This document shows, piece after piece, positions 3,611 to 55,622 of a stretch of 64,000 nucleotides of DNA. A program made the position numbers and the translations under genes. The first letter of the stretch is position 1. Every line of letters starts with the position of its first letter. The stretch is from a virus. The stretch is taken from the IMG/VR virus record IMGVR_UViG_3300044639_001193, positions 1-64,000 of that record; one strand, 5' to 3'. The notes beneath the pieces were generated by a model. The model worked only from the letters and a program-made list of their open reading frames with translations. It was not told the origin of the DNA and did no database searches.

Positions 3611-3871
3611 ATGGCAAGTAAACCAGCCAACCCACGATTGTGGAACACCATTGTCGCAATGGCAAAAGCAAAGTACTCCAACTACCCTAACCCAGGCGCA
3701 TCGCACTGGGTGCATAAGAATTATGTTGAAAAAGGTGGTCAGTTTATTGAGACCTCTGAAAAAGACCGTCGTAAAAAGATGGAACAAAAGAAACAAGAAA
3801 ACAAAGCCCAAAAAGAACGCATAACAAAAAAAGAAGATAAACCTTCTAAAAAGGATAAAGGCAAGAAGTAA
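3611..3871 (+). CDS. small basic hypothetical protein
   Basis: GGAGG SD; Lys-rich C-terminus; TAATG overlap with the portal gene. Confidence 0.8.
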   Translation: MASKPANPRLWNTIVAMAKAKYSNYPNPGASHWVHKNYVEKGGQFIETSEKDRRKKMEQKKQENKAQKERITKKEDKPSKKDKGKK

Positions 3872-5607
3872 TGTCATTTCTTGATTTCAGCCCTCCTAGT
3901 TATAGGGCTGCGTCGTCTGATTTAACAATCTCAATTTCTCCCCTTGGGCTTGTTGAACTTGCCGACGAAGAATTTGAAGTACACGGTCCACGATTAAATC
4001 GTTACTCCCTTAACTGGGCAATGTATTTGGGACACCATTGGGGTTATCGCCGTGAGTCAGGCGAAATGCAAATTGCAGTTAACTATTACAGAGCATTCAA
4101 TGACTTCTTAGCACGTTTCGTTTTTGGTAAGGGTGTTCACTTCCGTTCCCCTAAAGCAACAGAAGCAATTATTCCAGACCGCTTAGAGCGCATCTGGGAA
4201 GTAGATAATGACAAAATGCGTGTGCTTCTTGAGATGGCACAGCAAGGCGGAATTACTGGTGACATATTTACAAAGATTGCATACGAAGAACCATGGACAG
4301 ATTCTGCAGGTGGATTCCACCCAGGACGTGTTCGTATTCTTCCTATGAACTCTTCGTTCTGTTTTCCTGAGTTTCACCCACATGACCGCACACGTTTATT
4401 GCGTTTTAAACAAAAGTATCGTTTCTGGGGAACATCTCTAGAAGGTACTCGCCAAGTATTTACTTACACTGAAATTCTTACAGATGACACAATTGAAGAG
4501 TACATCAACGATGAACTCATTGACTCACGTCCTAATCCACTTGGATTAGTTCCTGTAGTCCACATACCTAATGTTCCTGTTTCAGGTTCGCCATGGGGTC
4601 TCGCAGACGCACACGACATCATCACAATAAACCGAGCCTATAACGAGATATCAACTGACGTAGCAGACATCATTAACTATCACGCTTCCCCTGTGACAGT
4701 TATTGTTGGTGCTAAAGCCTCTAACCTTGAAAAGGGCGCAAAGAAGGTTTGGGGCGGTCTTCCAAAAGATGCCCAGGTCTTCAACTTAGAAGGCGGTGCA
4801 CAAGGTATTGACGGAGCCTTGAAGTACCTAGAACTTCTAAAGCGCTCAATGCATGAAATCATGAACATCCCAGAAACCGCACTGGGTCAAGTTCAACCTA
4901 TCTCCAATACATCAGGTGTTGCGCTTTCTATTCAGTATCAGCCATTGATGAATCGTTGGTCACAGAAAGTTGCTCAATACGGTAAGGGCATTGAACGCAT
5001 CAATGAACTTGCACTACGTACTCTTGCATTAAAAGAACCTCAACTTCTTGTGTACGACCCAACCCAAGATGGGCCAATCAAAGAAGGTCAACTAGACCGT
5101 CTTGACCCTAACGACCCAATCACATACCAGAACTATGTGCAGTTCCCACAACCACTGCCATTAGATAAGTTAATTGTTTTGAATGAGATTCAAACTAAAT
5201 TGGGCATGGGCTTAGAGTCCAAAGAAGGAGCCTTGCGTACGCTGGGCGAGGAATTCCCAGAAGAGAAGTTAACTGAGATTCGTGAGGAACTCATCGCTGA
5301 TGCTCAGGCTGATGGCGCCTTACAACTTGTAAAGATTCAAGTCCAGAAAGCAATTATGGACATGACAGGCATGATGATGGGTCCAGACGGAAACTCTGCT
5401 ATCCCAATGCCACCACAGCAATTAGGCGATGGCGATGTTCTAGGTGACGGTATTGAAGGCGCCCCATCAGAAGAAAACGCAAAGAACCCAGATAATTTAG
5501 CAAGCGAACAAGCAAACATGAATGCTGAGTCCGCTATTAGAAACAAACTTGTCACTGAAGCCTACGGAACGAAACTTCCACAACGCAGAGCAGTAGACAA
5601 AGAATAA
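3871..5607 (+). CDS. portal protein (SPP1 gp6-like)
   Basis: Size and position after TerL; NPLGLVPVVHIPN and SNTSGVALSIQY motifs typical of SPP1-like portals. Confidence 0.9.
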   Translation: MSFLDFSPPSYRAASSDLTISISPLGLVELADEEFEVHGPRLNRYSLNWAMYLGHHWGYRRESGEMQIAVNYYRAFNDFLARFVFGKGVHFRSPKATEAIIPDRLERIWEVDNDKMRVLLEMAQQGGITGDIFTKIAYEEPWTDSAGGFHPGRVRILPMNSSFCFPEFHPHDRTRLLRFKQKYRFWGTSLEGTRQVFTYTEILTDDTIEEYINDELIDSRPNPLGLVPVVHIPNVPVSGSPWGLADAHDIITINRAYNEISTDVADIINYHASPVTVIVGAKASNLEKGAKKVWGGLPKDAQVFNLEGGAQGIDGALKYLELLKRSMHEIMNIPETALGQVQPISNTSGVALSIQYQPLMNRWSQKVAQYGKGIERINELALRTLALKEPQLLVYDPTQDGPIKEGQLDRLDPNDPITYQNYVQFPQPLPLDKLIVLNEIQTKLGMGLESKEGALRTLGEEFPEEKLTEIREELIADAQADGALQLVKIQVQKAIMDMTGMMMGPDGNSAIPMPPQQLGDGDVLGDGIEGAPSEENAKNPDNLASEQANMNAESAIRNKLVTEAYGTKLPQRRAVDKE

Positions 5608-7753: not shown

Positions 7754-8125
7754 GTGGCAAATACACCAGTAAGTCCGCTTGACGCAACAGGCCGTGCAGC
7801 GGCTGAAGCAACAAAGAAAAATGCAGAAGAACTTAGAAAGCGCAAAGATGAAATATCTATTGCCGCTCAAGTTGAAGCAGAGAGCATGGAACGGGATGTC
7901 TTTGACCCAAAGCACCCAGATGCTCCGCTTGTTCTAGACGAGATTGAAACCGTTGGAGTATCAACAGCAGGAGATATGGTTGTAATTCGTACCATTACCG
8001 ATGTTGAAGAAATGACTTACGGAGTTGGAAATCACTACACCTTTAAAGCAGGTGTTAAGTACCGAGTTCCATCTAGTCTCGCCAGTTATCTAGAACAACT
8101 TGGATATATTTGGCGGCCTAACTAA
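7754..8125 (+). CDS. hypothetical protein (head-associated)
   Basis: GTG start with AGGAG SD, immediately after the capsid gene. Confidence 0.8.
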   Translation: MANTPVSPLDATGRAAAEATKKNAEELRKRKDEISIAAQVEAESMERDVFDPKHPDAPLVLDEIETVGVSTAGDMVVIRTITDVEEMTYGVGNHYTFKAGVKYRVPSSLASYLEQLGYIWRPN

Positions 8126-8140
8126 GGCTTGTCAACAAAT

Positions 8141-8194
8141 GTCCAACCTCAACTGGTTCCCGCCCTCCTCCCAGTTGGGGTTGGACCTTTTTTT
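8141..8194 (+). terminator. intrinsic terminator
   Basis: 16-bp stem GTCCAACCTCAACTGG/CCAGTTGGGGTTGGAC followed by T7. Confidence 0.8.
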
Positions 8195-8241
8195 AACGCG
8201 TATATTTGAGATGATTGCGCTAATTAGTTTTCGGAGGTTAC

Positions 8242-9297
8242 GTGGCTACACTAACAAACCTTGCAGACCGTCTACGGTCTGAACTTGGTGACCTAGGTAA
8301 ATCTTTTGTTTACCAGTTTGTAGCCGACGGTACTACCAACCGTTATTTACTCCCTTATTCCCCTGTAGATGCCATTAACATGGTCATCTCTGTAGACGGA
8401 ACAGATGTCTCTCCAACCGTAGATGTTGAAGAAACCACTGGGTATATGACCTTTGATACGACTCCTGTAGAAGACGCAACAGTAGTTGTTGTAGGAACTT
8501 ATTTTAGATACTTTACTGTTACTGAAATTGAAAGATTTGTTTGCACTGCTTTTGAGCAACACACTGCAAACCACGCCGATACTTATGGCAGAGCAGTTCT
8601 CTTTGAAACTATTCCTGGGCTAGAAGAATACCCAATAGTTATTTATGCATCTACTTTAGCGCTATACACACTAGCCACAGACGCCTCATTTGACATTGAC
8701 ATCTCTGCTCCAGATGGTGTGACTATCCCTCGTTCTGAGCGTTACCGTCAGTTGATGCAAATGGTTGATATTCGCAAAAATCAATATAAGGAACTTTGTT
8801 CACAACTTGGTATTGGTCTTTATGCTATTGACGTCTTTACTTTGCGTCGCACATCTAAAACTACAAATCGTTATGTACCAATTTATCTTCCTATGGAAGT
8901 TGATGATAGGTCTATGCCAAGACGTGTACGACTTTCTATACCTAGTTATGGAAGTGCGATTGCTCCATCGTCAGTACCTACAAAAGATTTATTCTTATAC
9001 GAAGGTGACGCATTTACTGCAATCCTTGATTTCCCAGACGCATTTGATATAACAGAGTATACTTGGGAATCAAGTATCTCTAATCAAATTGGAAGCGCTG
9101 TATCTATTGTTGACTTTACAATTGAAATCATTACTGGAACAACTGACCAACTTCAAATTTCGTTAACACCAGAACAAACAGATTTACTTCCAGAAAAAAC
9201 TTATTGGGATATTCAAGGAACTTTAATTTCAGATACATCGCAAGTAACAACTTATATGCGTGGAACAATCATCACTACAAGGCAGGTAACTCAATGA
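8242..9297 (+). CDS. putative head-to-tail adaptor/neck protein with C-terminal Ig-like domain
   Basis: Position; N-terminal LADRLRSELGD helix typical of adaptors; beta-rich C-terminal domain (YWDIQGT...TYMRGTI). Confidence 0.55.
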   Translation: MATLTNLADRLRSELGDLGKSFVYQFVADGTTNRYLLPYSPVDAINMVISVDGTDVSPTVDVEETTGYMTFDTTPVEDATVVVVGTYFRYFTVTEIERFVCTAFEQHTANHADTYGRAVLFETIPGLEEYPIVIYASTLALYTLATDASFDIDISAPDGVTIPRSERYRQLMQMVDIRKNQYKELCSQLGIGLYAIDVFTLRRTSKTTNRYVPIYLPMEVDDRSMPRRVRLSIPSYGSAIAPSSVPTKDLFLYEGDAFTAILDFPDAFDITEYTWESSISNQIGSAVSIVDFTIEIITGTTDQLQISLTPEQTDLLPEKTYWDIQGTLISDTSQVTTYMRGTIITTRQVTQ

Positions 9298-27888: not shown

Positions 27889-29397
27889 ATGGCTTATAGC
27901 CGTCCAGGAGTTTACATTAGTGAACGCCTACTACCGCCTGTGCTCCAAGGTGGAGTAACTGCAAACGCCGCTGGCGCTGTAGTTGCACCATTTGCACAAG
28001 GCCCAGAAGCAGTAACGCTTGTTAACTCTTGGTATGAATTTACCAAGTATTTTGGTGGCTACAACGCCGCCTACCCAGCCACCTTCCAGGTTGGCTCTTA
28101 CTTCTCAAACGGAGGAAAAGAACTTTATGTTCAACGCCTTCTTAAAGCAGATGCAGATGCAGCAAGTGTAATTATCCAAACTTCTGCTTCTGACAATGTT
28201 TGTATTGTTACTGCTAAAAACGCAGGAGCAGACGGAAACAACCTTCGTGTTGTAGTAACTGCTGGTTCAGTAGCCTCTACTTATACACTCACCGTGTACA
28301 GAGAAGCAGGTGTAGCAGGCAATATCTCAGACGACGTTTTACTTGAGCGCTACGAAAACATTGTGTTTAATGACGATGCTTCAAGTGATTTTGCAAACGT
28401 TGTTATCAACACAGTTTCTGCTAATATCACTGTTGCTGCCGTAGATGGTTCAGGAGCACCTGTTCTCACAACATACCCACTTACAGGTGGAGACAACGGA
28501 ACAACTCCAGTGGCTGCTGACTACACAGACTACAAGAGTAGCGGAAGTTCAGTGTTTGAGCGTTTCTCAGCACTAGACCGTCCTCTTGTTGTATTCCTTC
28601 CAGGAATTTGGGCCGCACTTGCTTCTGCTGAAGTTTCAGTTATTGATGCTGCTACCTCATGGGCAGAAGACAATAATGGTTTTGTTGTTATTGAAACAGC
28701 AGCAGACCTAACAGTTGCTAACGCAATTTCAGCAGCAGGAAGTTTGACTGACACCAGTTTTGGTGCTGTCTACTATCCACACGTTTATATCTCAGACCCA
28801 GTAGGTCGTGGTACAGGCGCTCTTCGTCTAATTGGACCATCAGGTGCAATTGCAGGTCTTTACATGGCAACAGATGCAAGCCGTGGTGTCTTTAAGGCTC
28901 CAGCAGGTATTCAAACAACTGTTGCTGGTGTTGTTTCTGTAGAAAAAACCTTTACCTCTGCAGAACTAGACTCAATGAACGCAAGTACATCACCAGTTAA
29001 TCCACTTCGCCAGATTCCTGGTGCAGGTCTTTCTGTAATGGGTGCTCGCACACTTAAGCAAGATGGTACAGCGAACAAGTATGTAAACATGCGCCGTTCA
29101 CTTATCTACATCCGTAAGCAACTCAAAAACAACACAGAGTTTGCTATTTTTGAGAACAACGACGAAAAGTTGTGGTCACGTATCCGCAGCACACTTACCG
29201 TGTTCCTCACTGAATACAAAAACCAAGGCGGACTTCGTGGTGCAAACAACGCTCAGGCTTTCTTCATCAAGTGTGATGCAGAAAACAACACAGCAACCAC
29301 AATCGCTAACGGCGAAGTGCACATCCAAGTTGGTGTAGCACTCCAATACCCAGCAGAGTTTATTGTCATTGACCTAAGTCAAAAGACAATTAACTAG
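27889..29397 (+). CDS. contractile tail sheath protein
   Basis: SRPGVYISE N-terminus; RGVFKAPAG, GARTL, YVNMRR, FENND and PAEFIVI motifs. Confidence 0.95.
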   Translation: MAYSRPGVYISERLLPPVLQGGVTANAAGAVVAPFAQGPEAVTLVNSWYEFTKYFGGYNAAYPATFQVGSYFSNGGKELYVQRLLKADADAASVIIQTSASDNVCIVTAKNAGADGNNLRVVVTAGSVASTYTLTVYREAGVAGNISDDVLLERYENIVFNDDASSDFANVVINTVSANITVAAVDGSGAPVLTTYPLTGGDNGTTPVAADYTDYKSSGSSVFERFSALDRPLVVFLPGIWAALASAEVSVIDAATSWAEDNNGFVVIETAADLTVANAISAAGSLTDTSFGAVYYPHVYISDPVGRGTGALRLIGPSGAIAGLYMATDASRGVFKAPAGIQTTVAGVVSVEKTFTSAELDSMNASTSPVNPLRQIPGAGLSVMGARTLKQDGTANKYVNMRRSLIYIRKQLKNNTEFAIFENNDEKLWSRIRSTLTVFLTEYKNQGGLRGANNAQAFFIKCDAENNTATTIANGEVHIQVGVALQYPAEFIVIDLSQKTIN

Positions 29398-29417: not shown

Positions 29418-30044
29418 ATGGCAATAGTAAATAGCCGCTCAACGTTAGCCACAGACCCAGTACGTAACTTTCGGTTCTTGGTAACATTTGAACCACAAGA
29501 TACAAGTAACACAGGCCTTGGAACCACAACTATCCCTATGGGCTTTACCTCAGTATCTGGATTGGCTGTTACAACAGACTCAATCCCTTACCGTGAAGGT
29601 GGATACAACACCACTGTTCACCAAATTCCAGGACAGACATCGTTCACACCTATCACTTTGCAACGTGGCGTAATCCTCGGAAGCAAGCAAAATTGGGATT
29701 GGATGAAGCAGTTGTTCGCAACTGTACAGGCTGGCGGTTCAACCCTTGCATTAGGAAAGAACTTTCGTTGCGACCTTGAGATTGCGGTATTAAACCACCC
29801 AATCCCATCTTCAGGTGCAAACGTACTTTCTGGTGATGTAGCAGCAACTGCACCAAAAGATGAAGTTGCAATGCGCTTTAAAGTGTTCAATGCATGGCCT
29901 ACAACAGTGGCATACTCAGACTTAAACGCTGGTGATAATGCTCTCTACGTTGAACAAATGACCCTCGTACACGAAGGCTTTGACCTCAACTGGGGTGCGT
30001 TTAACACTACAACTAAGGCATTTGAAAACGCAGCAGACTTCTAA
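29418..30044 (+). CDS. tail tube protein (T4 gp19-like)
   Basis: DPVRNFRF, GFTSVSGL, YREGG, ITLQRGV, NAWPT and LVHEG motifs. Confidence 0.93.
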   Translation: MAIVNSRSTLATDPVRNFRFLVTFEPQDTSNTGLGTTTIPMGFTSVSGLAVTTDSIPYREGGYNTTVHQIPGQTSFTPITLQRGVILGSKQNWDWMKQLFATVQAGGSTLALGKNFRCDLEIAVLNHPIPSSGANVLSGDVAATAPKDEVAMRFKVFNAWPTTVAYSDLNAGDNALYVEQMTLVHEGFDLNWGAFNTTTKAFENAADF

Positions 30045-30061: not shown

Positions 30062-30868
30062 ATGACGAAAACAATTAGTGCAGCGGCTAATCCCGCAATG
30101 GCAAACAAAGCCGCTCAAGACATGATGGCTGAACAGCCTCAAGAAATAGAAGTAACGATTACACCTCCTTCGGACACAGTAGTTAACCTTCCTGGCGGAT
30201 ACATAACATCCGCTGGGGAGGTTGCTACCGAAGCAGAAGTACGTGAACTAAATGGTCGTGACGAAGAAGAAATCTCAAAGGCAAGCACTTTGGGTAAAGC
30301 GCTTTTAACAATCTTAAAGCGTGGAACCGTACGTGTTGGTAATGAGCCAGTATCTGAAAAAATGTTAGATGCTCTCCTTTCAGGTGACCGAGACATGCTT
30401 CTTGTAGGAATCTTTAAAGCAACATTTGGAAACATTGCACACTTGGGTGGCTATTGTGGCTCTTGTGCAGAGACCAAAGAAGTTGATATAGAAATTGATA
30501 AAGACATTAAGGTAAAGGTTTTAACAGACCCAGTTAATGACCGTACCTTTACCGTAAAAGGTAAAACTGAATACTTAGTACAACTACCAACTGGTATTAC
30601 TCAAAAAGAACTACTTCTTAGTGCGGATAAAACAATCCCTGAACTAAACACACTTCTTTTACAGAATACAGTTGTTAAAATTGGAGATTCACCAGTAGTA
30701 AGCAAGATTCAAGTATTAAACATCGGCCTTACAGACCGTCGCAAGATTGTTGACGAAATCAACAACCGACTATGTGGACCACAGTTTAACGACTTAACGC
30801 TTGATTGCCCAGATTGTGAAGGCGAGGTACAGGTCCCTATTAGTTTAGGCACCTTGTTTCGTTTCTAG
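30062..30868 (+). CDS. tail assembly chaperone / baseplate hub assembly protein (T4 gp26-like)
   Basis: Between tube and tape measure; VRELNGRDEE, LLSGDRD and two CxxC pairs. Confidence 0.75.
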   Translation: MTKTISAAANPAMANKAAQDMMAEQPQEIEVTITPPSDTVVNLPGGYITSAGEVATEAEVRELNGRDEEEISKASTLGKALLTILKRGTVRVGNEPVSEKMLDALLSGDRDMLLVGIFKATFGNIAHLGGYCGSCAETKEVDIEIDKDIKVKVLTDPVNDRTFTVKGKTEYLVQLPTGITQKELLLSADKTIPELNTLLLQNTVVKIGDSPVVSKIQVLNIGLTDRRKIVDEINNRLCGPQFNDLTLDCPDCEGEVQVPISLGTLFRF

Positions 30869-31007
30869 CAGAATTTCATACGCTCAATTACTTTTTGAGT
30901 GGAAAAGAGTAGCGGACTACTACCCAGGATGGACGTTGGCAGATATACAAAATCTGTCAAGAAGAGAAAGAGACAACTGGTTACAAATACACCAGTTAAA
31001 GAGTTAA
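30858..31007 (+). CDS. +1-frame extension of the tail assembly chaperone
   Basis: Frame with no ATG/GTG start: (F)VSSRISYAQLLFEWKRVADYYPGWTLADIQNLSRRERDNWLQIHQLKS*, filling the gap to the tape measure SD; GWTLxDIxxLxxxER resembles G-T/gp51-type chaperone tails. Confidence 0.7.
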   Translation, partial: FVSSRISYAQLLFEWKRVADYYPGWTLADIQNLSRRERDNWLQIHQLKS

Positions 31008-31016
31008 GGAGATGAC

Positions 31017-33581
31017 ATGGGTTATGCAGCAGATGTAAAAGCCTTAACCGCTGACATCGCTAAACTTACTGAAGCAATTAACGCTATGCACGCTGCCCTT
31101 TCATCAACGGGCAAAGAGGCAGGTGGCATTTTCTCTTCTCTTAAAGGCATCATTGGAAAAGGTGGTCAACGCGGAGTTGGCTCAACTGGTGGTAACAAAC
31201 TAAGCGGTTCACTTGCTGGGTTCAGTACTCCTACAAGTACACCTAAGAGTATGAACACCAACGGTGGTCAGGGTGGTGGCGGTGAAGTAGGAGGCGGTAC
31301 TACCCCTAACGGTGGCGGCGCTTCTTTCGGTGGAGTACCGATGGTTGGCTCCAGTATGTCCCGAATGGTTCAAGGCCAAGGCTACGCTGCAATTGGTTCT
31401 GGAATGATGGGGGCAGTAAAGGCTGTTGTTGGAACTGTTTACGACGCTGCTCCAGATTCTTCTGGCGTAGTAAACCGTGCTGGTTCATACTATCAAGCAG
31501 CGCTACGTTCTCCAGGAATGGCACGAGCAGGATTAGCACAAGCAACTTTTAGCGCATTAAAAGGTGGACTAAGCAGCATTGGCTCTGACGCAAATGTTGC
31601 AAACATCCTTGCAAATGCTGGCTATGTTCCAGGTAGTAAAGATTATTTATCTGCCGCACGCCAAACACGAGGTGCGGCAACTTACCTTGGAATGCAAAAT
31701 GAAAATGCAGCCTCTGCAATTGCAGGGCTACAAGGTGGGCCGATGTCTGCTCAACTTTATCAATATGGCATTACAACTATGGGTGCAAATGGTGAGGCTA
31801 AAAGTGTTGGTGACATTGCTAAGCAACTTTATAGCGTTATGTTCCCAGGCGGTGCTACACCTAAAAGCGTTCAAGAATCTCTTCGTAGTGGTTATGCAGA
31901 CCTAAACTTACAAGGTTTGGGGATGAACGCAGACCAAAAACAGATGATTAGCCAAGCATTTATTGATATTGCTGGAGGAAAAAACCCTGACCTTGCCTCT
32001 GCAAAGTCTGCTAAAGATAACCAAAATCCTTTTGACCCACTTTACCGAATGAATACTTCTTCCACCATGATTCAAGGTGCTGCAGAAAAAAATACTCTTT
32101 CTGGTCTTGGCGCTGCAGCAGGAACTATTGAAACATTTAACAATGTTATGAAAGACACCATTGCATCTATGTCTACCTTAAAGGGTTACCTAGATGGTCT
32201 ACAAGGTAATCCACAAGGTTCTGCTCTAAAGAAGGGTGCACAGGGCCTTTGGAGTGCTGGCAAAAAAATTGTTGGCGGCCTAATGATGCTTGGTGGCGGA
32301 GCATTAGCCGCAACAGGAGGTGGAGTTGTACCAGGATTAGCAATTGCTAGTGGAGGTGCCGCTCTTGCTTTTGGTGGAGGTACACCAGGTTACGGTTCTT
32401 CTTTTGGTGGTCGTAATTTAGGCTCAGGAAAATATGCAAACAATCTTGTAAGTGCTGCTTACGGTGCACGGGATGCACAAGGCGGTAACTGGGATAGTAC
32501 TGGTGGAGTTCACCAAGGAACAGACTACAACGTTAAAGTTGGAACACCTGTAGTAGCAGTTAAAGAGGGCGTTGTTTCTGACAAAGTGTTAAGCGCCGAT
32601 TATGGACAAGCAGTACTCCTTGACCACGCAGATGGGTACTCTTCTCTTTATGCACACTTAAGTTCTAAACAAGCAACTCCTGGAACAAGAGTATTTCAAG
32701 GACAAAAAATTGGTGAGTCTGGAAAATCAGGTAATGCTACTGGCCCACACTTGCACTACGAGGTATGGCATGGACCTAACAACCCTGTAGACCCAGCAGA
32801 GTTAACAAATGCTGGTTTGCCTGTTTCTGGCTCAAACGTTACTCAAAACATGAACGTTTCAAATCCAAACTTATTATCCGATGTAACAAGCATTAGTGCT
32901 TTAGGTAATACCAGTTCTGGTGGTTCAAGCGGTTCAAGCGGTTCTTTATCCCTTGTTAAGGGCACTGGAGACAAAAAGACTTGGGCTACTCAATTGCTTA
33001 CAGCAATGGGTGCCCCTGTATCTGATACCAACATTAATGCCCTTACAACTTGGCAAAGCAGAGAAGGTGGTCACTGGAATAACAGTGCCAACTATAACCC
33101 GCTTAACACCACGCTTGACATGGGTAACTCTGAAAGTATGAACAGTGTTGGAGTAAAACGTTACAAGTCTTGGGAAGAAGGAATTCAAGCAACGATTAAA
33201 ACTTTAACAGGCGGAAGTGCAGATGCTCGTGGTTATACAGCCATTGTTAATGCTTTAAAGAGCGGTGCAGACACAGCAACAATTCTTAAAGCAGTTAGCA
33301 ACTCTGCCTGGGTAACAGGTAAAACTGGTCAAAACAGTTATAAAGGCTTTACAGGTGGCGGTACTCCTGGTTCTCCTGGTATTCCAAACCCAGACACTAC
33401 AAGCCAAAACATAACGCCTACGCCTATCCCAGTTACAACTCCACAAGCAAGTGAATCTAAAGTTGTTAATTTTAATGTTTATTTAAACGATGTATCCGAT
33501 GCTCAAGCATTACTTTGGGCTAGAAAAGTTGAAACGTACTTGCACGATAAAAAAGAAATTTCTTTAATGGGAGGTAAGTAA
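31017..33581 (+). CDS. tape measure protein with M23 peptidase and lysozyme-like domains
   Basis: Position after the chaperone; HQGTDY, YAHL and TGPHLHYEV (M23); W...EGG...NPLNT...Y.SWEEG (lysozyme/transglycosylase-like). Confidence 0.85.
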   Translation: MGYAADVKALTADIAKLTEAINAMHAALSSTGKEAGGIFSSLKGIIGKGGQRGVGSTGGNKLSGSLAGFSTPTSTPKSMNTNGGQGGGGEVGGGTTPNGGGASFGGVPMVGSSMSRMVQGQGYAAIGSGMMGAVKAVVGTVYDAAPDSSGVVNRAGSYYQAALRSPGMARAGLAQATFSALKGGLSSIGSDANVANILANAGYVPGSKDYLSAARQTRGAATYLGMQNENAASAIAGLQGGPMSAQLYQYGITTMGANGEAKSVGDIAKQLYSVMFPGGATPKSVQESLRSGYADLNLQGLGMNADQKQMISQAFIDIAGGKNPDLASAKSAKDNQNPFDPLYRMNTSSTMIQGAAEKNTLSGLGAAAGTIETFNNVMKDTIASMSTLKGYLDGLQGNPQGSALKKGAQGLWSAGKKIVGGLMMLGGGALAATGGGVVPGLAIASGGAALAFGGGTPGYGSSFGGRNLGSGKYANNLVSAAYGARDAQGGNWDSTGGVHQGTDYNVKVGTPVVAVKEGVVSDKVLSADYGQAVLLDHADGYSSLYAHLSSKQATPGTRVFQGQKIGESGKSGNATGPHLHYEVWHGPNNPVDPAELTNAGLPVSGSNVTQNMNVSNPNLLSDVTSISALGNTSSGGSSGSSGSLSLVKGTGDKKTWATQLLTAMGAPVSDTNINALTTWQSREGGHWNNSANYNPLNTTLDMGNSESMNSVGVKRYKSWEEGIQATIKTLTGGSADARGYTAIVNALKSGADTATILKAVSNSAWVTGKTGQNSYKGFTGGGTPGSPGIPNPDTTSQNITPTPIPVTTPQASESKVVNFNVYLNDVSDAQALLWARKVETYLHDKKEISLMGGK

Positions 33582-55307: not shown

Positions 55308-55622
55308 ATGGAAGAACCAGAGTATGCGTGGCGTTACAGCGCACGCTGTAAGGGTGAAGACACCGACATCTTCTACCCACCACGAGATAAAGAACAATAC
55401 AAAATCATTGCTAATCAAGCAAAGGTATTTTGTTTTGGAGAGAATAAAAAGAACCCGTGTCCCGTACAAAAGCAATGTTTATGGGATGCAGTTAAACGTG
55501 AGGAGCCTCACGGTATTTGGGGGGGCTTGAGTCATAGAGAAAGAAATGCTTTAATTCGTAAGTGGAAGAAATCGCATAAAAAGAAAATGTCGTTGCAAGA
55601 ATTTATCTTAACTAAGGAATAA
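55308..55622 (+). CDS. whiB: WhiB-family transcription factor
   Basis: W...A.C......F.P, four Cys (C, C, CPV...CL) and GIWGGLS..ER. Confidence 0.92.
   Translation: MEEPEYAWRYSARCKGEDTDIFYPPRDKEQYKIIANQAKVFCFGENKKNPCPVQKQCLWDAVKREEPHGIWGGLSHRERNALIRKWKKSHKKKMSLQEFILTKE

Follow-up and report, generated by a model that had tools for sequence, protein, structure and literature searches.

Comparative evidence for a probable programmed +1 frameshift at UUU_C in the gene for the tail assembly chaperone in a lake-water phage and its relatives

Frameshifting in the tail assembly chaperone genes of phages is a textbook case of recoding that sets the ratio of two products, and nearly all of the described examples are -1 shifts, among them those of lambda (G/GT) and P2 (E/E+E') (Xu, Hendrix and Duda 2004, in the passages of PMC5009743 and PMC3711429 that cite it). 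Precedents for +1 shifts in phages nevertheless exist: one has been predicted in the tail chaperone gene of the archaeal myovirus HSTV-2 (PMC5009743), and protein sequencing has demonstrated others in structural genes of phages (PMC3498833). For the PA-X product of influenza A virus, which is made at UCC_UUU_CGU, a slip on UUU_C in the ribosomal P site is favoured on re-pairing and mutational grounds, and the sequenced junction peptide gave the +1 direction (PMC3498833); in bacteria, UUU_Ynn is a known +1-prone site (PMC5009743). Here we describe a tail assembly chaperone gene (30062-30868, plus strand) from the IMG/VR virus record IMGVR_UViG_3300044639_001193, a sequence of 99,750 bp with direct terminal repeats, of which the first 64 kb are referred to below as the window. 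We consider it likely that a programmed +1 shift at TTT_C (30857-30860, plus strand) is what best explains this locus, a judgement that rests wholly on comparative evidence, and the shift would take place on a four-base signal around which no helper elements were detected. The same shift, with tRNA-Phe moving from UUU to UUC, was the core of an original prediction made from the window's letters, and the relatives examined here lend that proposal strong support.

The 268-codon zero-frame open reading frame (ORF) ends in AGT TTA GGC ACC TTG TTT CGT TTC TAG, with TTT at 30857-30859 and the stop codon at 30866-30868. The +1 frame contains a TAG at 30846-30848 and is then open from 30849 to the TAA at 31005-31007; counted from the TTC at 30858 it comprises 49 sense codons (30858-31004) with not a single ATG or GTG, and the -1 frame shuts after 22 codons. 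The two TAG codons bound the shift window (30846-30868, plus strand), which leaves fewer than 20 nucleotides for a shift and contains no X_XXY_YYZ heptamer of the canonical -1 kind. Read directly, these 20 nucleotides offer full tRNA re-pairing after a +1 move at one place only, from TTT to TTC, and a slip there yields a product of 314 amino acids with the predicted junction ...SLGTLF-VSSRISY.... The peptide ...LGTLFVSSR named in the original prediction is thus the product of this slip, and every position given there is correct to the base. Taken alone, an open +1 frame of 49 codons is unremarkable, with a chance of roughly 5% at 43% guanine plus cytosine (GC) by our estimate; the layout amounts to more than chance because it is conserved in relatives.

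Two scans of IMG/VR gave 92 usable loci on 86 contigs, corresponding to 66 distinct sequences including the window, with protein identities of 57-100% (the second scan reported 522 relatives overall). At all 92 loci the zero frame ends in (TTG/TTA/CTG/ATG) TTT C[G/A]N NNN stop; the -1 frame closes soon, and the +1 frame stays open through the site and the 45-57 codons that follow, except that one locus (L068) reaches the end of its contig after 35. Every one of the 66 distinct sequences and of four Streptomyces phages has TTT followed by C, and the codons around it all vary. Among the 66, the slip codon is TTT in every one, whereas the preceding codon is TTG (35), TTA (26), CTG (4) or ATG (1), that is, Leu or Met and never UCC; the following codon is CGA (20), CGC (18), CGG (9), CGT (7), CAG (6) or CAA (6), and so belongs to CGN in 54 and is CAA or CAG in 12; the last sense codon is TTC (45), CTC (10), TTT (7), ATC (3) or ATA (1), followed by TAG or TAA. 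For comparison, TTC occurs 3, 10 and 11 times in the other three conserved Phe columns of the same 66 sequences, and the codon is invariant in only 5 of 80 conserved degenerate columns. Across the genome, a Phe codon that stands before C is TTT in 77 of 152 cases (51%), against 284 of 307 before G. Whether TTT_C is avoided in frame elsewhere in the gene proved uninformative, Phe before C being rare there.

Two further observations concern the surroundings of the site. The share of TTT among Phe codons in the whole genome depends strongly on the next base (93% if it is G, 74% if it is A and only ~50% if it is C or T), which could reflect avoidance of shift-prone UUU_Y and equally an ordinary context bias. 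In five close homologs of the zero-frame gene (P0004, P0040, P0046, P0050 and P0120) the stop two codons after TTT is missing. In variants of this kind the zero frame runs on for 10-17 residues (...LFRFQQNFIRSTFV), and a nearby stop is therefore neither essential to nor fixed in the signal.

The extension that the +1 frame encodes (30858-31007, plus strand; 49 codons and TAA) was characterized from alignments and profile comparisons. Its pattern of variation marks the frame as coding, given that column entropy is 0.96 for the first codon position, 0.65 for the second and 1.25 for the third (the order 3 > 1 > 2) and that a motif is conserved, with the consensus F.SS..PY..L.aEW..lt..y.GWTLtEIk.LS.RER.NWLe. 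The extension is also largely devoid of places to start. In 44 of the 66 sequences the stretch from the site to the conserved EW motif is free of ATG, GTG and TTG, in 4 so is the entire extension, and where start-like codons are present they fall at differing Leu, Met or Val positions; in the window, the only TTG is codon 27 (30936-30938), within the conserved GWTL motif, and no Shine-Dalgarno sequence precedes the extension. When the extension profile was compared with 1.84 billion representative proteins, it found 129 matches, all of 31-79 amino acids and none fused in frame to a chaperone body, and these small matches are ORFs proposed by gene callers, whose starts are incidental. Of these extension ORFs, 44 reach far enough upstream, and each of the 44 has a Phe at the corresponding distance ahead of RER, usually in the pair CF, SF or TF, which fits (T/C)TT_C in the zero frame, as far as called ORFs can indicate. 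Likewise, the 120 best matches to the fused product in a collection of 5.8 billion proteins are 267-286 amino acids long and correspond to the zero-frame part only, with no fused form among them. The original prediction had considered that homologs might give the downstream ORF a start codon of its own or might be fused in frame. There is no conserved start in the homologs, the starts given in records of Streptomyces phages being a matter of annotation and not of sequence, and no fusion was seen among the 1.84 billion representatives.

A search of 50,697 isolated phages found the gene only in five Streptomyces phages of the BRock group, at 36-38% identity, and in Bacillus phage BCD7, at 23%; a search of isolated phages at the DNA level gave no match. 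Four of the Streptomyces phages, GiJojo, BRock, pSt2308 and LuckySocke, were compared at the site, the fifth, Alone3, being left out. The zero frame ends in ATC CTG TTT CGC GAA CTC stop in the first three and in CTG TTT CAG GAA CTC TGA in LuckySocke, and each of these phages has a +1 frame that passes TTT_C without a stop and encodes ...YSEYEQLVD.Y..WSL.EI.KLT.RER.HW.... Conservation of this peptide reaches upstream of the annotated extension starts. In GenBank, the extension stands as a separate hypothetical ORF that begins at a TTG and cuts the conserved peptide in GiJojo (L001 3770-3967) and BRock (L002 3767-3949), is annotated from a later start in LuckySocke (L104 1315-1470), and has no feature in pSt2308 (L103); a frameshift is recorded in none of these four records. 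The annotations of BRock-like phages thus omit the predicted fused product.

These annotations bear on the first alternative, which holds that the extension is a separate small gene, expressed by independent initiation or by termination and reinitiation after the TAG, from a non-canonical start. In its favour, annotators have called an ORF of its own in GiJojo, BRock and LuckySocke, gene callers have produced the 129 clusters of small proteins, two genes would also account for the lack of in-frame fusions, and the window has an ATT at 30873-30875 that might serve. However, this ATT is not conserved and no Shine-Dalgarno sequence stands before the extension, in the window the extension lacks ATG and GTG and has its one TTG inside a conserved motif, and the relatives are either startless up to the EW motif (44 of 66) or throughout (4 of 66), or have their start-like codons at varying positions. 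Annotation of the Streptomyces phages places the start differently from one record to the next, truncates the conserved peptide or, in pSt2308, gives no start at all. Above all, a separate gene leaves the invariance of TTT_C and the always-open +1 frame unexplained, and we regard it as improbable, if still the best placed of the alternatives to a shift at UUU_C.

More distant relatives suggest that the device by which the extension is reached is exchangeable. In high-GC relatives (IMG/VR L099-L102, 65% GC), the corresponding sequence is GAC CTT CTA TAG (L101 ~1240-1260) and the extension again follows in +1; here tRNA-Leu would slip from CUU to UUC beside a CTA that is followed by the stop. 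CTA is rare in high-GC hosts. The BCD7 homolog (L003 ~3690-3890) ends in TTA CTG GGG GAG TAA, and a related, unannotated extension (...AFNYHWSEDCILALSRSKRKRYVEMI...) is open in its -1 frame, which suggests that ribosomes slip by -1 on five consecutive G's. Because an equivalent extension is reached by a +1 route at CTT_CTA and by a -1 route in BCD7, we conclude that the two-form design is old and that the slip device changes.

For the +1 shift at TTT_C we envisage the following mechanism. Most ribosomes would read 30062-30865 and stop at the TAG, giving the short form of 268 amino acids. With UUU (30857-30859) in the P site, a minority would let the single tRNA-Phe, whose anticodon GAA pairs better with UUC than with UUU, slide by one base onto UUC, and would then continue with GUU UCU AGC... 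in the +1 frame, adding 48 residues after the Phe to give a long form of 314 amino acids. To judge from lambda G/GT and P2 E/E+E', the body common to both forms would serve to bind the tape measure protein and the extension to bring in the tube protein, and the rate of slipping would set the ratio of short to long form. The minimal signal would comprise UUU_C with a codon of the type C-purine-N in the A site, near a zero-frame stop and with no detected stimulator. Since neither a Shine-Dalgarno-like nor an RNA-structure stimulator was detected, slipping would be expected to be low and constitutive, at a few per cent. A low slip is what a ratio such as the ~30:1 of lambda G to GT needs (PMC5009743). 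What is seen directly is the architecture of the locus and its conservation, a +1 frame with the signature of coding sequence, and the lack of starts and in-frame fusions; from these observations we infer that a shift occurs, that it goes by +1 and not by -2, how often it happens and what each of the two forms does.

Several points weigh against this mechanism. No helper element was found around the site when codon usage, RNA folding and Shine-Dalgarno-like runs were checked. Among the Arg codons of the phage, CGT is used most often (18.8 per 1000), and the idea of a hungry or rare codon in the A site is thus unsupported by the phage's own codon usage. There is no conserved downstream RNA structure, the consensus fold of 16 diverse sequences amounting to 4 pairs at -3.5 kcal/mol, and the window's own RNA fold has z = -0.53. 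Nor does any Shine-Dalgarno-like stimulator stand at a distance suited to promoting a +1 shift: the sole G-rich element is a conserved Gly codon 7 nucleotides upstream, too far away and too weak to act like the Shine-Dalgarno sequence of the release factor 2 (RF2) gene. The conservation itself has to be read with some care, in that the IMG/VR contigs come mostly from lake metagenomes and are not all independent, that the invariance of TTT is moderate and not decisive evidence, TTT being the preferred Phe codon of the clade, and that conservation of Leu-Phe-Arg could arise in part from constraint on the protein's C-terminus. The one metatranscriptome contig found at the locus (X15) covers 30700-30850 and ends before the slip site, and the fused product is predicted from comparison. 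Lastly, a -2 shift reaches the same frame as a +1 shift.

This last point underlies the second alternative, according to which the long product arises through a -2 shift, or through a +1 shift at some other codon of the 20-nucleotide window, instead of by UUU to UUC. Phage Mu does use a -2 shift in its G/GT-equivalent tail assembly gene (PMC3498833), and with the zero-frame stop two codons downstream a termination pause is conceivable. After a -2 move, though, tRNA-Phe would have to pair with UGU or UAU despite a mismatched middle base, and a -2 move from the last sense codon, which varies among TTC, TTT, CTC, ATC and ATA, lands on GNU, in which N is free; the Streptomyces phages, for their part, have GAA CTC before the stop. 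The nearby stop is missing in P0004 and P0040, and within the shift window only TTT_C is invariant. A shift of this kind is, in our estimation, a little less probable again than a separate gene. The two remaining explanations have next to no probability. Single-base indels in homopolymers are common in assemblies and a run of T's stands exactly at the change of frame, but an assembly artefact, or a frameshift mutation that is splitting a once-fused gene in decay, can in practice be dismissed, in view of the same frame relation in 86 contigs of many samples and 4 isolate genomes, of purifying selection on both frames, of the lack of an in-frame version among the 1.84 billion representatives, and of DNA contigs from three further lake-water studies that cross 30600-31100 with 0 insertions or deletions and few substitutions, so that the assembly indel raised in the original prediction does not appear. 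Transcriptional slippage, in which RNA polymerase would drop or add a base at the T run, is used by phages and bacteria to reach alternative frames (PMC5009743), but the run here is of only three T's and its flanking bases vary. Productive slippage of this kind needs runs of ~6-9 identical bases.

How, then, does a +1 shift at UUU_C in this gene compare with the shift sites described elsewhere? The original prediction had read it as a PA-X-type UUU_CGN signal. The likeness to influenza A PA-X (PMC3498833) extends to the UUU_C tetranucleotide, to CGU as the next codon in the window and to a proposed P-site slip of tRNA-Phe; both sites lack an RNA structure and would be expected to shift with low efficiency. 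It goes no further than that, for CGN is not kept but gives way to CAA or CAG in some relatives and to CTA in the high-GC ones, the E site holds UUG, UUA or CUG and not UCC, CGU is not rare in the phage, and the shift would take place on bacterial ribosomes. The prediction had also set the UUU_CGN signal of influenza PA-X and amalgaviruses against chaperones that typically shift by -1. UUU_Ynn is already +1-prone in bacteria (PMC5009743), and therefore no viral or eukaryotic precedent is needed, and a +1 shift in a chaperone gene also has its precedent in the one predicted for HSTV-2. Most simply, the resemblance to PA-X is convergence, the independent use of a generally slippery tetranucleotide.

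The bacterial UUU_Ynn sites, including that of Yersinia YopN-TyeA (PMC5009743), are closer in kind. They share with the phage site the host domain, the tetranucleotide and the lack of need for an adjacent stop, and in YopN-TyeA, as is predicted here, the shift fuses two adjacent ORFs into a functional product; here, by contrast, the site lies in a phage tail chaperone gene and is conserved across a large clade. The bacterial prfB gene, which encodes RF2 and shifts at CUU_UGA with an upstream Shine-Dalgarno sequence, likewise involves a +1 P-site slip onto an equal or better codon, a likeness that the CTT_CTA_TAG of the high-GC relatives, with its putative tRNA-Leu slip from CUU to UUC, shares. 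In contrast to prfB, the site described here has CGT in the A site, a stop that comes two codons later and is absent in some variants, and no Shine-Dalgarno-like run. A limited literature search found no description of a UUU_C +1 site that is kept across a large clade in a chaperone of the PF12322 type. The clade consists mostly of uncultured actinophages of lake water together with cultivable Streptomyces phages, and it would offer a natural bacterial system for the study of UUU_C slippage and of the role of the next codon, a question left open for influenza PA-X.

With the chaperones of lambda and P2 (G/GT and E/E+E'), the locus shares the position between tube and tape measure genes, a short and a C-terminally extended form that arise by a change of frame at the 3' end, and an extension with no start of its own that resembles the E' part of P2. 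In profile comparison, the extension matches the frameshift-only part of P2 E+E' with an hhalign E of 4.7e-4 (probability 32%); single members give weak hmmscan matches to PF06528 Phage_P2_GpE (0.004) and PF10109 Phage_TAC_7 (0.013), 11 of 20 members match phrog_10636, and NCBIfam yielded no match for the extension. The locus differs from both phages in that the shift is +1 and not -1, in the lack of an X_XXY_YYZ heptamer, and in the body, a PF12322 protein of 268 amino acids with two chaperone-like halves and CxxC pairs where theirs has ~90-140 amino acids. The body matches PF12322 (T4_baseplate) at 31-32 bits against a gathering cut-off of 24.5, over residues 76-166 only, and precomputed PF12322 assignments exist for nearly all homologs; it has no match to Pfam Phage_TAC, and a profile search of the PDB sequences gave none. 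An AlphaFold2 model of the zero-frame body has a mean predicted local distance difference test score of 86 and a predicted template modelling score of 0.79. Its best PDB match, with a Foldseek probability of 0.95, an E of 0.17 and a VIA Z of 6.7, is the tail assembly chaperone of HK97 (2ob9), followed by YqbN, which we take to be an XkdN-type chaperone (3klu, Z 6.6, N-terminal half), and 3fgx (Z 5.7, C-terminal half), with unrelated rows at Z 4.3 or below. The modelled body thus suggests a tail-chaperone-like fold, with the reservation that the Z values are modest and that values below 8 may reflect a common arrangement. Taken together, its position, its two-form design, its fold and the extension justify calling the gene product a "tail assembly chaperone".

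The Pfam family also leads to phage T4, whose gp26 and gp51 both match PF12322 and are hub assembly chaperones (Leiman et al., PMC3004832), the hub being the structure that contains the tape measure gp29. Gene 26 has two nested products, gp26 and gp26' (RefSeq annotation), as is predicted of the gene described here, whereas T4 uses no frameshift and has instead two paralogous genes and an internal start, annotated in RefSeq for 26'. Compared with the single T4 sequences of gp26 and gp51, our family profiles gave no significant hhalign match. In T4 (L098, NC_000866) the genes for gp26 and gp51 lie at 7803-8429 (minus strand) and 8480-9229 (plus strand). Past the shared domain gp51 has a C-terminal tail of 48 amino acids, of which residues 222-243 line up by eye with residues 23-44 of the +1 extension; the match is not significant (hhalign E 0.05) and serves as a lead only. 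In T4, the short and the long form of the chaperone may each have a gene of its own. A wider reading, which we put forward tentatively and think rather unlikely as a whole, would join both strands: UUU_C with a C-purine-N codon would be an autonomous, stimulator-free +1 signal long kept in actinobacterial phages, and PF12322 proteins would be the assembly chaperones of tails like that of T4, with gp26 (short) and gp51 (with its tail of 48 amino acids) as the equivalents of G and GT in the form of two genes. If this were true, the signal would be the bacterial counterpart of the UUU_C class predicted from PA-X, with restricted A-site codons, and T4 would be explained as the stated exception to the conserved G-T frameshift. 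The tie between the hub chaperones of T4 and the tail chaperone family bears on T4's apparent lack of a conserved frameshift.

The surrounding genes are all on the plus strand and follow the order sheath, tube, chaperone and tape measure. The tail sheath gene (27889-29397) matches phrog_23 tail sheath (E 5e-48) and the tail tube gene of the T4 gp19 type (29418-30044) matches PF06841 Phage_T4_gp19 (E 1e-27); they are followed by the zero-frame chaperone gene, with its PF12322 match and two CxxC pairs, as the source of a "G"-like product, by the extension as a "T/E-prime"-like module, and by the tape measure gene (31017-33581), identified by tape-measure PHROGs and an M23 peptidase domain (PF01551, E 4e-28), whose ribosome-binding site overlaps the 3' end of the extension. 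The order of tube, chaperone and tape measure also holds in GiJojo, BRock and BCD7. As for the host, the nearest isolated phages infect Streptomyces, and a WhiB-family gene (55329-55553; PF02467, 64 bits) is present. WhiB genes are a hallmark of phages of Actinobacteria. Together with the GC content of the record (43.1%) and the occurrence of the sequence in lake-water metagenomes of over a dozen studies, the WhiB gene makes a low-GC freshwater actinobacterium the likely host. The phage record contains no tRNA genes. In the tape measure protein, the M23 peptidase domain occupies residues 498-593 and is accompanied by long Gly/Ser-rich stretches, and its homolog in BRock carries the annotation "endolysin".

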